In this document: positions 11,934-22,171 of the stretch, one piece after another
Numbering within the stretch: the first letter of the stretch is position 1
Layout: each line of letters begins with the position of its first letter
Assembly: GCF_030013595.1 (NCBI RefSeq)
Contig: NZ_CP122768.1
Length of the DNA: 64,000 bases
Direction: 5' to 3' (one strand)
Origin: Escherichia coli
GTDB taxonomy: Bacteria; Pseudomonadota; Gammaproteobacteria; Enterobacterales; Enterobacteriaceae
Made by a program: the position numbers and the translations under genes
The notes under the pieces: model-generated
Database searches by the model: none
Told to the model about the DNA's origin: nothing
What the model saw: only the letters and a program-made list of their open reading frames with translations

Positions 11934-11968
11934 TAAAAAAACCAACCTTTACGGTTGGTTTTTTTGGG
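11934..11968 (+). terminator. Rho-independent terminator of yejO
   Basis: AAACCAACC-TTTA-CGGTTGGTTT hairpin followed by TTTTTTT. Confidence 0.7.
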
Positions 11969-12044
11969 ATTTTTGGTCACGAGAGTATTCAAAACACGCC
12001 AATAACCTCTTGATTCAATTGAAGTCGAAAATTTTAAGTCAAAA

Positions 12045-12085
12045 ATCGTATAGCTTAACGTGTAGCTAAAAATGTTTGCTGCAAA
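12045..12085. repeat. Island-terminal repeat CGTATAGCTTAACGTGTAGCTAAAAA, matching the int-proximal end
   Basis: Near-identical to GTATAGCTAAACGTGTAGCTAAAAAA at about 22035-22060; candidate integrase arm-type sites. Confidence 0.5.
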
Positions 12086-12622
12086 AGTATACAATTTTAA
12101 CCGTTATGACTCCCTGTTATCCGTTATCAAGCTGGTGGATGATCATGGATAACCCGTTATGGGAATCCCCATATCGGCATCAGGCCCATGCCATAACAAA
12201 AACCCCATATTCGTGGGTTTTCTGTGTTGTGGCTATTCTGCCGTTGCCGTGCTGGTGGATATTTCCGGTATGTGGCTCACCATATCGGCATCACGCCCAC
12301 CAGCGCGACGCATTTTTTTAATTTCGCGGGTGTAAAAATTTGACGGGGCGGGCGGTCCTATAAGCAATGGGGGGTAGGGATTTCGATCCCCCCTCCTGAA
12401 TGCAATTTTCCGTATGTGGCTGTGCGGCAATCATACTCGTCACATGTTTTTGACAATAAAAGGCCCGACCGTGAGACTCACAAACAAAAAAGTTACGGAG
12501 AAACAGGGGATCGGGCTCGGTTGCCGCTAAATCTATTCAATTAAAAGAAGATGTCAATAGGGAAAACGAAAAAAAACAATGCTGATATTGTCATAATTTG
12601 AACAAAACCACTATATGTAGTT

Positions 12623-12853
12623 TTAGTTCATGAGGTTAGTCGCTACCAGATGCGTCAATAGTTTTTTGCTATTAATAATCCCTCTTTTTCCATCGGGAGC
12701 TTTGCACTTGTCACTACCTGGTAACTCCTGGTGGCGTTCCTGTTGCAGCACAACGGAAACAGGCGCTGAACACCTGTTAATTTTGCTTGCAGGTTGTTTG
12801 ATTTCGGCAATGCTGCGGATCATCTCCAGCATATCGGCTTCGGTGATGGTCAT
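12623..12853 (-). CDS. Hypothetical small protein (76 aa) at the distal end of the island
   Basis: ORF with AAGGTG ribosome-binding site 6 nt upstream of the ATG; no recognisable motif. Confidence 0.3.
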   Translation of the reverse strand: MTITEADMLEMIRSIAEIKQPASKINRCSAPVSVVLQQERHQELPGSDKCKAPDGKRGIINSKKLLTHLVATNLMN

Positions 12854-12883
12854 GATTTACACCTTAGGAAATCTTAGGGGCTG

Positions 12884-13137
12884 GTTGACACTTTCCGGCT
12901 TAAGACCTTAACAAATCTTAACATCGCAGGTTGACACACTTGACACTTTTTCGCGAAAAACCTTATCAAACCTTAGCATTTCTAAGCATGGCAACTTGAC
13001 ACTTTTCGCGATTTTTTCGGCTTTTTGACGTGGTAAATCTGGCGCAAAGCCAGTAACGGCGGGGTTTACAGCGAGGTTGACACTTTTTCGCGTTCAGAGT
13101 GTAAAGTGTCAACCTGGCAAGCTGCTCAACTTGACAC
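12884..13137. repeat. Array of at least 7 copies of GGTTGACAC(TTTTTCGCG) in both orientations, interspersed with CTTA(A/G)CA short repeats
   Basis: Copies at about 12884, 12929, 12940, 12996, 13075, 13105 (inverted) and 13131; lies immediately downstream of the TerS-like gene. Confidence 0.6.
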
Positions 13138-13146
13138 TTTTTGAGG

Positions 13147-13674
13147 TCATTGATGGCCTGATTTTTCCCACTCAGCCAGGGCGTTTAGTCCGGCTTCACT
13201 CCAGTTATCCAGCTCATCGGGACAATCACCTGCAACATAGCAGAGCTCACAACGCAGCATACGAATTGCCAGCCTGGCATTTTCCCGAAAATCATACTGC
13301 TCAAAGTAATATTGCCCAGCATAATCCTCAAGGCAGATAGCACCATCATCAAGAAATTGCACTTCACAGCATAGTTCCCCGGCTGCATCCTGTACACGCT
13401 GCTGTATGTCATTGTCCGTTACTGGTGCAGGGATTTTACCGTCTCTGGCCTTAACTGCTTTCCAGAACTCGCCCCACGTCATTTCCAGCGTTCTCTCTGG
13501 CCACATTTCAGAAACGGTATCTTTTCCCTGTGCTGGTGGGCTGTTCCGCTGCTCTGTCGCTTCCACATCGATTTTTTTACCGGACATGACCACTTCGCCT
13601 TTCTCGATCCAGTCGTAAACTGTCTGGCGGCTTACGCCTTTGTGTTTGGCATATTCTGCCTTGCTCATAAACAT
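13147..13674 (-). CDS. Small terminase-like winged-HTH protein (Rpp-like packaging-redirection candidate)
   Basis: 175 aa; N-terminal MSKAEYAKHKGVSRQTVYDWIEKG resembles the Nu1/TerS-type HTH; acidic cysteine-containing C-terminus; GAGGGGA ribosome-binding site. Confidence 0.5.
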   Translation of the reverse strand: MFMSKAEYAKHKGVSRQTVYDWIEKGEVVMSGKKIDVEATEQRNSPPAQGKDTVSEMWPERTLEMTWGEFWKAVKARDGKIPAPVTDNDIQQRVQDAAGELCCEVQFLDDGAICLEDYAGQYYFEQYDFRENARLAIRMLRCELCYVAGDCPDELDNWSEAGLNALAEWEKSGHQ

Positions 13675-13844
13675 GACACTTCCCCTCAGACTGTATTAAT
13701 GCGCCGGAAAGCGCGTGTATTTAAATCATCCCAGGAACCGTTGAGCACCAATTAGTTGCGCGAAGTAATCGGCACCAGCGTTCCGAACAATTTCCAACTT
13801 AACGTTCTGATCATTGTTTCCTGCTGCAGGGACAATCCCACGAT

Positions 13845-20193: not shown

Positions 20194-20319
20194 CGTGTTT
20201 TACCTCATTAATCCGGCGTATTCCGGTGATAAATACGGTAAAACAGGGCAGGGCGGGAAAAACAGTACCCACCGTTTTAAAACGGTACCCACTGTTTTTT
20301 ATCTCATTGATTTCGCTTT

Positions 20320-20357
20320 CTTTTTGCAAAAAAATAGCGACCGCAAGGGCCGCTATT
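20320..20357 (-). terminator. Rho-independent terminator after the int-orf80 unit
   Basis: AATAGCGGCC...GGTCGCTATT hairpin followed by TTTTTTT on the minus strand. Confidence 0.5.
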
Positions 20358-20361
20358 GTGA

Positions 20362-20604
20362 TTACCGCTTCCACTTCTTAGGTCGCCCACCGCATTTAAG
20401 GCTGGTGGGTCTCAGCACCTTGTCGATGCTTTCAGCCAGATTTTTCGATGCGCCACGCGAGCGCAAAAAACTGACTACCTCGTGTTTTGTGGGGGCTGTT
20501 GATTTGTCTTCCGGATCGTACGTTGACCAGAATTCACGATTTGCCATTAAGGCCAACTGAAGACCTTCACCATAGGCAGGGGATACCTTTTCATTGAAAA
20601 ACAC
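20362..20604 (-). CDS. Hypothetical protein (80 aa, GTG start) with basic C-terminal tail
   Basis: AAGGAG ribosome-binding site 8 nt upstream of the GTG; located between int and alpA. Confidence 0.45.
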   Translation of the reverse strand: MFFNEKVSPAYGEGLQLALMANREFWSTYDPEDKSTAPTKHEVVSFLRSRGASKNLAESIDKVLRPTSLKCGGRPKKWKR

Positions 20605-20720
20605 CTGGATAGCTCCTTGAATTTCATGATTTGGGTGACTCCTCTCTGTATTGGGTGGGTTGTGGCGATTATACGATGGTTTAGCATGGTTTGCATCGCT
20701 TTTACTGGTTTTTTGTACAG

Positions 20721-21962
20721 TTATACGGCACGGATACCCCTTTTACCACTGGCTATGGTCACTCCAGTTGCTGCGGCCTCTACAAATTCCCCCCACCAGC
20801 GCATAAGCACCACGCGCTTTTCCAGGTAGTTACTTCGGTTATATGCTCGCCTTACCTCGTTCGTGTCCACGTGTGCGAGTGCGGCCTCGATTACGTCCGG
20901 CTCGAATCCTTCCTCGTTCGCTGCTGTACTGAATATGGCGCGTAATCCGTGAGACACCAGCACACCAGCGTAACCCATCCGGCGTAATGCAGCGTTAGCG
21001 GTCTGGCTGCTCATTGGTAGCATTGGATTTTTAAGGCTGGGAAAAACATGTTCCCTGTGTGCGCTGATTGGCTTCATGGTTTCCAGTACAGCCATAGCCT
21101 GACCGCAAAGGGGGATCACATGGTCACGGCGCATCTTCATGCGTCCGGCTGGAATCGTCCAGGTTTCGGCATCGAGATCTATTTCTTCCCAGCGTGCGGC
21201 GGCTGCTTCGGCTGGGCGTGCTACGGTCAACAGTTGCCACTCGATCAGCAATCTGGTTTGCCGTTCTATGCTGGCGACCGATAAATCGTGCATTAGCTGC
21301 GGTAGCTGTTCCGGTCGGATGGTTGGCATGTGCTTTTTGGTGGGTGAGGGAAATGCCTTGCGGACGTTAGCAGCGGTGTTGATGTCAATCAGCCCACTGT
21401 TGGCGGCAAAATCCATCACTTCATTGATGCGCTGCAAAACGCGTTTCAGTGTTTCCAGGTTGCCGCGTGCTTTAATGGGGGTGAGTATCTCAACAAAGCG
21501 GCGAGCGGTGAGGGTATCTATTGGCGTGTTTCCGATGTACGGGAATACGTATTTTTCCAGGGATCGCCAGATATCCTTAATCGTGTTGTAAGCCAGATTC
21601 TGGCCTTTTTTCATCTCGTACCAGTCCGAGGCAACTTTTTCGAACGTGTTGCCCTTTTTCCGACTCTCTGCTTCACGTTTCCGGCGTTCGTGGTCCTGTG
21701 GGTCAACTCCCTTCGCTATGAGTGACCTGTATTCATTCCGTCGTTCTCTGGCATCGGACAGGGAAACATCATTCAGCGATCCGAGGCTGATGATAGTCCG
21801 TTTTTTATCTGCCGGGCGGTAGTACGTAAAACGCCAGATTTTTGATCCGGAGGGTTTCACCAGAAGAAATAATCCTCCGCCATCCTGCAGGGTGTATTCC
21901 TTTTCCCCTGGTCGTGCGTTTTTGATCTCCGTAATAGTTAGTGGGGTGGTTTTTCGTGCCAT
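20721..21962 (-). CDS. int: Tyrosine site-specific integrase, P4 family
   Basis: 413 aa; N-terminal arm-binding-like domain (DGGGLFLLVKPSGSKIWRFTYY), C-terminal catalytic HGLRA...RAYNRSNY; adjacent to the tRNA-Pro 3' end. Confidence 0.9.
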   Translation of the reverse strand: MARKTTPLTITEIKNARPGEKEYTLQDGGGLFLLVKPSGSKIWRFTYYRPADKKRTIISLGSLNDVSLSDARERRNEYRSLIAKGVDPQDHERRKREAESRKKGNTFEKVASDWYEMKKGQNLAYNTIKDIWRSLEKYVFPYIGNTPIDTLTARRFVEILTPIKARGNLETLKRVLQRINEVMDFAANSGLIDINTAANVRKAFPSPTKKHMPTIRPEQLPQLMHDLSVASIERQTRLLIEWQLLTVARPAEAAAARWEEIDLDAETWTIPAGRMKMRRDHVIPLCGQAMAVLETMKPISAHREHVFPSLKNPMLPMSSQTANAALRRMGYAGVLVSHGLRAIFSTAANEEGFEPDVIEAALAHVDTNEVRRAYNRSNYLEKRVVLMRWWGEFVEAAATGVTIASGKRGIRAV

Positions 21963-21974
21963 GTTTTTTTACTC

Positions 21975-22075
21975 ATCGGTAGCTATATGCCTGGTCGTAG
22001 CTATACGGCTTTAGCTACACGCTGGACCGTATAGCTAAACGTGTAGCTAAAAAATCCGGTTATAACCCTATCTTA
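21975..22075. repeat. Cluster of (G)TAGCTA(T/C)A repeats between int and the tRNA (candidate arm-type Int binding sites / attL)
   Basis: At least five TAGCTA-containing units; one 24-bp unit is repeated at the opposite island end (about 12050). Confidence 0.5.
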
Positions 22076-22171
22076 CCGATTCAATCCGGCGACTGAAAAC
22101 AACAAAAAAGCCCGTTAATCAGTAAATTAACGGGCTTTCAATAGGTTACCGATGCTGTCCGATATTCGATT

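Follow-up and report, generated by a model that had tools for sequence, protein, structure and literature searches.

The island between yejO and proL

We examined a 64-kb stretch of the Escherichia coli contig NZ_CP122768.1 (the whole stretch is called the window below) that carries, between the autotransporter gene yejO and the tRNA gene proL, an island which is very probably a phage-inducible chromosomal island (PICI), i.e., a satellite dependent on a helper phage. The window was aligned with the K-12 MG1655 chromosome at 97-99% identity from 6738 to 11989 (ccmG to yejO) and again from 22170 to 64000 (proL to yeiG). No alignment to K-12 MG1655 was obtained for 11989-22170; in K-12 the yejO terminator runs straight into the proL 3' end, representing the empty site. 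The island measures 10,198 bp between two TTTGGT cores, at 11972-11977 and 22170-22175, which span the CCA end of the tRNA. An original prediction, made by a model from the sequence letters, had placed about 10.2 kb of foreign content here within flanks collinear with K-12; this was borne out, its coordinates being correct within about 15 bases, and the alignment to an island-free locus that it had recommended yielded the TTTGGT junction cores.

The intact proL gene lies at the right junction. A three-way alignment, of both junctions with the empty K-12 site, showed that an imperfect copy of the proL 3' end comes after the core on the left (CACGAGAGtATTcaAAaC vs. CGGCACGAGAGgATTtgAAcC). These sequences are what a crossover inside TTTGGT, between an attP mimicking the tRNA end and the chromosomal attB, would give, and the predicted attP junction reads TATTCGA-TTTGGT-CACGAGAG. 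The motif GTRTAGCTA occurs six times in the window (0.37 expected) and five of the six copies are near the island ends; together with the 26-nt direct repeat found inside both ends, these clusters are probable arm-type sites of the integrase. The island thus encodes a full-length integrase of its own, and its attachment site is specific, flanked by repeats and empty in K-12.

Open reading frames (ORFs) of at least 60 aa within the island were scanned against PHROGs, NCBIfam and Pfam, and against PADLOC-DB 2.0 for defence functions; the features are collected in Table 1. The genes are all on the minus strand, YlcI/YnfO excepted. We compared the content with published PICI criteria (PMC6092414; SatelliteFinder, PMC10085698). 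The integrase equals in length WP_000101918.1 of sister islands, a regulatory gene of the AlpA/MerR/Stl type is present (PF05930 AlpA, phrog_66), and the ORFs from the Icd-like gene through the helicase overlap or abut, forming a tightly coupled operon. The replicase at the end of this operon also matched the primase/helicase families phrog_906, 3228 and 864, and is annotated "helicase RepA family protein" in relatives. Directly 3' of it lies a candidate origin: all seven exact copies of CCTCACTTT in the window fall at 16566-16854 (0.41 expected), in a stretch of GC content 0.37, and the position just 3' of the replicase is that of published PICI origins (PMC6092414). The P4-family integrase and the AlpA, FinO-like and PerC-like genes of the original prediction were thereby confirmed (NF007246, PF05930, PF04352 and PF06069), as was its coupled leftward operon ending in a RepA-like initiator with iterons downstream (overlapping ORFs, phrog_2850 and the seven CCTCACTTT copies). 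No portal, large terminase, tail, holin or endolysin family was found among the scanned ORFs, nor a head-tail connector gene, and the size of 10.2 kb falls within the range of about 10-15 kb expected of a PICI.

Table 1. Features of the island, in window coordinates
Feature	Position	Strand	Basis
Left attachment junction, TTTGGT core + degenerate proL 3'-end copy	11972-11996	none	three-way alignment
26-nt direct repeat CGTATAGCTtAACGTGTAGCTAAAAA, left copy	12047-12072	+	repeat family D10, 96% identical to 22028-22053
phiP27-type cos site, core GACGGGGCGGGCGGTCC at 12342-12358	12315-12396	none	match to annotated phiP27 cos-site
o76, 76-aa hypothetical ORF between repeat array and cos	12623-12853	-	Shine-Dalgarno-like sequence upstream
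Six AAGTGTCAA motifs, five on one strand and one inverted	12885-13139	none	directly downstream of o175
o175, 175 aa, N-terminal winged helix-turn-helix + C-terminal alpha/beta domain of unknown kind	13147-13674	-	
o217, DUF2213 protein, capsid-maturation (prohead) protease fold	13845-14498	-	weak DUF2213 match; phrog_6216 positions 115-315
o197 (RefSeq-style start 15147, 194 aa)	14563-15156	-	phrog_6216 positions 405-544
o65, small hypothetical (57 aa as annotated in relatives)	15187-15384	-	WP_001224090.1 in L001, L005, L007
PerC-family transcriptional regulator	15562-15849	-	PF06069 4e-30; phrog_994 8e-36
ProQ/FinO-family RNA-binding protein	15846-16388	-	PF04352 4.5e-22; NF010317 FinO and NF003434 ProQ below curated cut-offs
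Candidate replication origin, AT-rich iteron array CCTCACTTT x7, direct and inverted	16530-16857	none	directly 3' of replicase gene
RepA-family helicase, N-terminal primase-like region (PICI pri-rep function)	16855-18270	-	phrog_2850 6e-248, full length
DUF4222	18267-18566	-	PF13973 2e-22
o66	18571-18771	-	phrog_340
o121	18764-19129	-	phrog_340
Icd-like (host cell-division inhibitor-like), first gene of leftward operon	19122-19325	-	NF033153 1e-18; phrog_6196 6e-55
YlcI/YnfO-family gene, divergent	19525-19704	+	NF041551 2e-18
AlpA-family regulator	19987-20193	-	PF05930 8e-6; phrog_66 6e-9; annotated AlpA family in L003
o80, conserved hypothetical between int and alpA (76 aa in relatives)	20362-20604	-	WP_001181702.1 in L001, L004, L005
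P4-type tyrosine integrase, 413 aa, full length	20721-21962	-	NF007246 3e-168, 560 bits vs. cut-off 434; phrog_1
GTAGCTA / GTRTAGCTA repeat cluster between int and right junction	21979-22053	none	repeat family D10, motif counts
Right attachment junction (core 22170-22175) + intact proL tRNA-Pro(GGG) at 22172-22248	22170-22248	-	ARAGORN, alignment

Related loci were fetched for comparison: L001 (E. coli ETEC1747), L003, L004, L005, L007 and L010. PICIs are present at proL in many other strains with the same integrase, o80, AlpA and left end, and with different middle and left-hand modules. In the swapped modules, a single-stranded DNA-binding protein replaces ProQ/PerC, and o197/o217/o175 are replaced by a major capsid protein, a decoration protein and terS (as in EcCICFT073), or by a ClpP-capsid fusion with DUF1441; the o197-o217-o175 module in turn was found at other tRNA sites, in islands with different integrases. 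Published Gram-negative PICIs show the same kind of module exchange, size and gene order (PMC6092414, PMC10085698).

Packaging site, o175 and the protease-scaffold pair

We regard the packaging site as the strongest single evidence for the satellite nature of the island. Over 82 nt, the sequence at 12315-12396 shared 85.7% of its bases with the region annotated as cos-site in phiP27, a phage carrying Shiga toxin 2e (Stx2e), and 44 consecutive identical nucleotides cover the cos feature; it occurs once in the window. In phiP27, and in an Stx2e prophage of porcine enterotoxigenic E. coli (ETEC), this cos lies between the genes for an HNH endonuclease and a P27-family small terminase subunit (TerS), followed by the large terminase (TerL), portal, HK97-family protease and capsid genes. 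The same cos was found at the outer end of other PICIs, i.e., at proL (L003, L005), at the clpS site in strain F11, and in one IMG/VR contig; a scan of IMG/VR returned phiP27-like phages and this one further PICI-like contig, and no record showing packaging ends. The island contained no lambda-type cos, and no P2/P4-type cos within 3 mismatches of the consensus. Our literature searches on phiP27 with PICI returned no paper describing a phiP27-type cos in satellites.

Since the cos is of the phiP27 type, the helper is most likely a phiP27-like, HK97-type cos phage that depends upon HNH for packaging and encodes HNH, TerS and TerL; the lambdoid helper of the original prediction was not supported. 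The match names a concrete candidate, a phiP27-like Stx2e phage of porcine E. coli, and would mean that a satellite has a part in spreading or blocking a Shiga-toxin phage. Four island units amount to 40.8 kb, or 95.8% of the phiP27 genome, so that a tetramer would fill a full-size helper head; packaging of tetramers into full-size phiP27-like heads is arithmetically possible.

The island also contained 14 Chi octamers (GCTGGTGG; 8 on the plus and 6 on the minus strand), all within 12131-20800 and three of them within about 220 bp of the cos site. Their density was 1.37 per kb compared to 0.30 per kb in the other 53.8 kb of the window (about 4.6-fold, binomial p = 8e-5), and ranged from 0.9 to 1.6 per kb in the six related PICIs (L001, L003, L004, L005, L007, L010). 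The enrichment may shield linear replication or packaging intermediates from RecBCD; literature searches on Chi sites with PICI returned no paper describing Chi enrichment in PICIs.

The original prediction had described a small terminase-like helix-turn-helix (HTH) protein at the end of a separate unit. This stood for the N-terminal winged helix of o175 and failed beyond it: the first 42 residues matched the small terminase family phrog_57 (5e-7), and the N-terminal domain resembles the DNA-binding domains of TerS, RppC and Xis. Sequence searches of the PDB with o175 and with the positional counterparts of sister PICIs returned nothing, including no match to RppC or lambda TerS; there was no sequence similarity to phiP27 TerS, and a structure search against viral models gave generic HTH matches, none of them significant. 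o175 thus has neither homology to RppA/B/C nor the Rpp pairing of an N-terminal DNA-binding domain with a helical dimerisation domain that pairs with helper TerS. Directly downstream of the gene, the six AAGTGTCAA motifs of the array are all of the exact copies in the window (0.48 expected). The array was present in each fetched locus with an o175 homolog (L001, L005, L007) and absent where DUF1441 or terS stood instead. As o175 occupies the terS/Rpp position of the PICI layout, we propose that it is a packaging-specificity factor, with the AAGTGTCAA array as its candidate binding sites; it is also possible that o175 is a transcriptional regulator. If the former is correct, o175 and its repeats would offer a small, self-contained system in which to study packaging specificity beyond the Rpp family.

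The original prediction had also stated that there were no capsid, tail or lysis genes. Tail and lysis genes were indeed absent, but head morphogenesis is represented by o217, with a protease fold, and by o197, with a scaffold C-terminus. The two proteins match separate parts of one family, phrog_6216, and one single gene holds both parts in 14 phage records (Rac-SA53 and 13 others). The Rac-SA53 protein ("TolA/nudix", 430 aa) is encoded between portal/Mu-F-like genes and a presumed capsid gene, i.e., in the position of a protease-scaffold. o217 corresponds to its residues 1-224 (54% identity, the N-terminal DUF2213 domain), and o197 residues 63-197 to its residues 299-430 (64% identity over o197 residues 63-191, the C-terminal domain), following upon a new 62-residue N-terminus. 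The EAK-rich coiled coil between the domains is missing from the island pair, and the gene order is reversed compared to the phage. o217 has the fold of the assemblin / T4 gp21 capsid-maturation proteases with the conserved catalytic His and Ser and a third residue (H73, S127 and D160, invariant in 26 homologs), and is probably an active protease. No Pfam domain was detected in o197, which we propose to be a free scaffold or capsid-binding domain. Stand-alone o197 homologs of about 190 aa occur in Escherichia, Salmonella, Citrobacter, Enterobacter and Pantoea, and this retention across genera argues that the split is a stable architecture and not a local frameshift. Neither protein had sequence similarity to the phiP27 prohead protease or capsid protein; thus, the morphogenesis genes were not copied from the phage whose cos is carried. 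A capsid-morphogenesis gene is common but not universal among proteobacterial PICIs; in this island the corresponding slot is filled by prohead-protease-fold and scaffold-domain proteins, with no capsid-protein homolog, and is analogous in function at best. Literature searches on DUF2213 returned no paper describing such proteins in satellites.

In RefSeq and UniRef, members of the o197 family commonly go by the name "NUDIX hydrolase", and DUF2213 homologs are mislabelled "TolA". We rejected the NUDIX name for o197, there being no NUDIX domain in Pfam or NCBIfam scans; it was apparently carried over from distant relatives whose DUF2213 protease domain bears a genuine NUDIX domain at its N-terminus, a fusion that occurs in some phages and satellites. 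A DUF2213 profile matched only NUDIX domains in the PDB; these matches go back to fused homologs among the aligned sequences and have no bearing on o217 itself.

Probable satellite identity, proposed life cycle and alternatives

We read the island, with high confidence, as a helper-dependent satellite of the PICI type (Gram-negative EcCI type) with its own P4-type integrase, inserted at the proL 3' end and apparently intact. The cos site, int, AlpA, replicase, origin and the sister elements at the same site all bear out the PICI-like satellite at tRNA-Pro that had originally been predicted. The closest known system is EcCICFT073 and the other Gram-negative PICIs (PMC6092414, PMC6739421), with which the island has in common its length (about 10 kb), an attachment site found empty elsewhere in the species, and a unidirectional layout of int, alpA, small ORFs, pri-rep, an iteron origin 3' of the replicase, PerC, head-morphogenesis-like gene(s), a small HTH/terS-like gene and cos; like them, it is predicted from its gene content to depend on helper terminase and virion genes. 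It differs in that its cos is of the phiP27/HK97 type and not the lambda type, its o175 is no sequence homolog of RppA/B/C, its morphogenesis slot holds a split prohead protease-scaffold and not a capsid and decoration pair, and its replicase is a RepA-helicase allele.

Other satellites offer partial parallels. SaPIbov5 and similar cos-type Staphylococcus aureus pathogenicity islands (SaPIs; PMC5052747) likewise carry a copy of the helper cos, rely on a helper terminase of the HNH-associated, HK97-like cos type and encode a head-morphogenesis homolog of their own; the host is Gram-positive, the genes are unrelated, the repressor is Stl where the island has AlpA, and SaPIbov5 uses the capsid-protein homolog Ccm, whereas the island has protease-fold and scaffold-domain proteins. 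SaPI1 CpmB (PMC5052747) is alike in concept only, as a satellite protein in the role of the helper scaffold: o197 keeps the C-terminal domain of a helper-type scaffold, there is no sequence or demonstrated structural relation between the two, and SaPI1 is without a paired protease-fold protein.

A life cycle can be proposed from these parts. In EcCICFT073, deletion of int or alpA abolished transfer (PMC6092414); by analogy, a helper phage would switch on AlpA, leading to excision with Int, and the leftward operon would be turned on. The RepA-type primase-helicase would then replicate the circle from the CCTCACTTT iteron origin into concatemers, the gene and the iterons being what is observed and the activity what we would predict from them. 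Helper terminase would cut and package the concatemer at the phiP27-type cos at 12342-12358, where the sequence match is observed and its use is proposed, with HNH, TerS and TerL, none of which the island encodes, supplied by the helper. Packaging is redirected by Rpp in published Gram-negative PICIs (PMC6739421), and o175 might act like Rpp or a satellite TerS, binding the AAGTGTCAA array beside cos and tipping packaging in favour of the island. o197 and o217 would take part in the assembly of helper capsids or upset it, serving either as an alternative scaffold or as an interference factor. The specific roles proposed for o175, o197 and o217 are each tentative and somewhat doubtful.

Several observations weigh against this scheme. 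The hijack signatures disagree, the cos being of the phiP27 type and the protease-scaffold pair related to Rac-SA53-type phages, which lack a phiP27-type cos; the HK97-family protease and the capsid protein of phiP27 have no detectable similarity to o217 or o197, so that the target of the pair would be heads of the Rac-SA53 type rather than those of phiP27. The L007 island has the o197-o217-o175 module without the phiP27 cos, so this cos may have no part in how the module works. A single cos copy was present in most genomes that carry the island, meaning that no phiP27-like prophage is resident there. Sequence similarity of o175 to TerS does not extend beyond about 40 residues, none was seen to RppA/B/C, and its C-terminal domain matched no terminase or Rpp structure. 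Finally, a 3-nt gap and several mismatches set the left att copy apart from the proL end, which fits a TTTGGT crossover but could also mean decay.

In a rival reading, the o197-o217-o175-repeat module of the PICI is a headful (pac) hijack unit directed against Rac-SA53-type phages, with o175 as the island's own small terminase, AAGTGTCAA as pac, and o197/o217 remodelling Rac-SA53-type capsids; the phiP27 cos would then belong to a separate proL backbone, giving two packaging routes for two helper classes. The occurrence of the module and its repeats in islands without the phiP27 cos (L007) speaks for this, as do the cos-bearing left end common to proL PICIs with other modules, the 54-64% identity of o197/o217 to the Rac-SA53 head protein, and the two cos sites of EcCICFT073 (PMC6092414). 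The o175 C-terminal domain, however, is unlike the oligomerisation domains of small terminases, and we consider pac packaging possible but doubtful.

A more specific version of the satellite scheme, which we think unlikely, would have o197 and o217 as a split and permuted protease-scaffold device that delivers a scaffold domain and a catalytically intact protease separately into the helper procapsid; the phiP27 cos would add a second helper class to be exploited or blocked, and Chi would protect the intermediates. The Rac-SA53 head protein is one 430-aa protein, and the island has two genes in the reverse order with no coiled coil. If real, the device would be one not described before: capsid size would be altered to suit the satellite, or proteolysis at the wrong time would poison helper heads; in combination with a cos from an unrelated phage group, one 10-kb element would exploit or block two helper classes; and Chi sites, enriched roughly five-fold, would serve in addition to guard linear replication and packaging intermediates against RecBCD.

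It is improbable that the island is a decayed, immobile satellite or prophage remnant whose genes, such as PerC and ProQ/FinO, are kept for host benefit. The imperfect left att repeat could be taken in this way, as could the small indels compared to the closest relatives (at the o175-o217 gap and in the icd/ylcI region) and the rarity of the exact mosaic, at least 80% of which was found in only 7 of 5,426 complete E. coli genomes (all seven porcine isolates, six of them ETEC-named strains). But the core genes are all full length, equal to the lengths annotated in relatives; the left-end sequence is 89-98% identical among sister proL PICIs, which makes the imperfect repeat a property of the family and not a sign of decay; the cos, iterons and repeat arrays are intact; and the site is empty in K-12 and filled by mosaics that vary from strain to strain, which implies that these elements moved and recombined recently.

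A P4-like satellite, a capsid-forming PICI (cfPICI) or a conjugatively mobilised genomic island, in place of a classical PICI, is very improbable: the P4-type integrase, AlpA-type regulator and Icd-like gene, the tRNA integration and the helper dependence are shared with P4-like elements, and FinO-family proteins are best known from conjugative plasmids, but the PHROGs, NCBIfam and Pfam scans gave no match to Psu, Sid, Delta or the P4 alpha-type primase, epsilon (completing the P4 set with the psu-delta-sid operon) and the P2-type cos are likewise without counterpart, the replicon differs from that of P4, a cfPICI needs its own capsid, protease, portal, head-tail connectors, HNH and terminase subunits, of which only a protease-fold protein is present, and no relaxase or coupling-protein match was obtained.

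The satellite identity is mostly confirmation: PICIs inserted at tRNA genes of E. coli have been described in detail and catalogued by the thousand, and hundreds of public genomes already contain these modules, under hypothetical or wrong annotations. The phiP27-type cos, the split protease-scaffold pair, the non-Rpp HTH protein with its own repeat array and the Chi enrichment are worth a note but do not amount to a new kind of system. The pair, which is satellite-specific across several enterobacterial genera, is a candidate for a capsid-hijack mechanism unlike those of Ccm, CpmAB, Sid and TcaP.

Accessory genes, variable slots and the island ends

The original prediction had anticipated that the island might carry anti-phage cargo. 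No PADLOC match at E <=0.001 was obtained for the 16 island ORFs, and there is no discrete cargo slot; the one weak hit, of HTH type (E 0.0068), extends over the first 26 residues of o175 only. PerC, ProQ/FinO, the Icd-like protein and YlcI are accessory or regulatory genes, PerC homologs being accessory genes in E. coli PICIs (PMC6092414, PMC11773190), and the ORFs left unassigned are small conserved PICI backbone genes. o80 and o76 gave no family match in the PHROGs, NCBIfam, Pfam and PADLOC scans, and o65 none in those of PHROGs and NCBIfam. The status of o76 as a gene is uncertain; it is conserved in relatives in part only.

Within the leftward operon, the start and stop codons of DUF4222, o66 and o121 (18267-19129) overlap, so that from the ORF coordinates these genes are translationally coupled. 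The start of the Icd-like gene agrees with that of a 68-aa homolog in L003. A 286-aa ORF at 19122-19982 was rejected as a single gene, as it covers the Icd-like gene and the antisense strand of YlcI/YnfO. The gap between these two genes (19326-19524) contains divergent promoter-like sites at 19415-19443 (plus strand) and 19463-19434 (minus strand).

Two slots varied in comparison to L001 and L005 and may be accessory hotspots of this PICI group. The first, at 13675-13848, is the o175-o217 gap, where strain ETEC6335 has the remnant of an extra gene; the second, at 19268-19907, is the icd/ylcI region, where the Icd-like genes of relatives are duplicated or longer, or a SWIM-domain or antirepressor gene is present.

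Between the left arm-type repeat and cos, about 250 bp (12076-12321) contained direct repeats of 35 nt at 12154/12265 (83% identical) and of 20 nt at 12121/12241, with no convincing ORF and no Rfam match. The first half, to 12188, is kept in all of the proL PICIs examined, and the region might be a cos-flanking (cosQ/cosB-like) sequence or bind the integrase or an accessory factor. An Rfam scan of the island found the tRNA alone, the sub-threshold matches to small RNAs and microRNAs being attributed to chance. In L001, positions 2060-2462 hold a second, inverted copy (about 400 bp) of the yejO-proximal flank with part of proL and its flank, inside the left end; this suggests a rearrangement or a tandem-site event at the attachment site of ETEC1747. 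yejO itself is intact in the window, as an 863-aa ORF at 9282-11873; the K-12 copy is broken by IS5K, and the alignment of the window with K-12 leaves out exactly this element.

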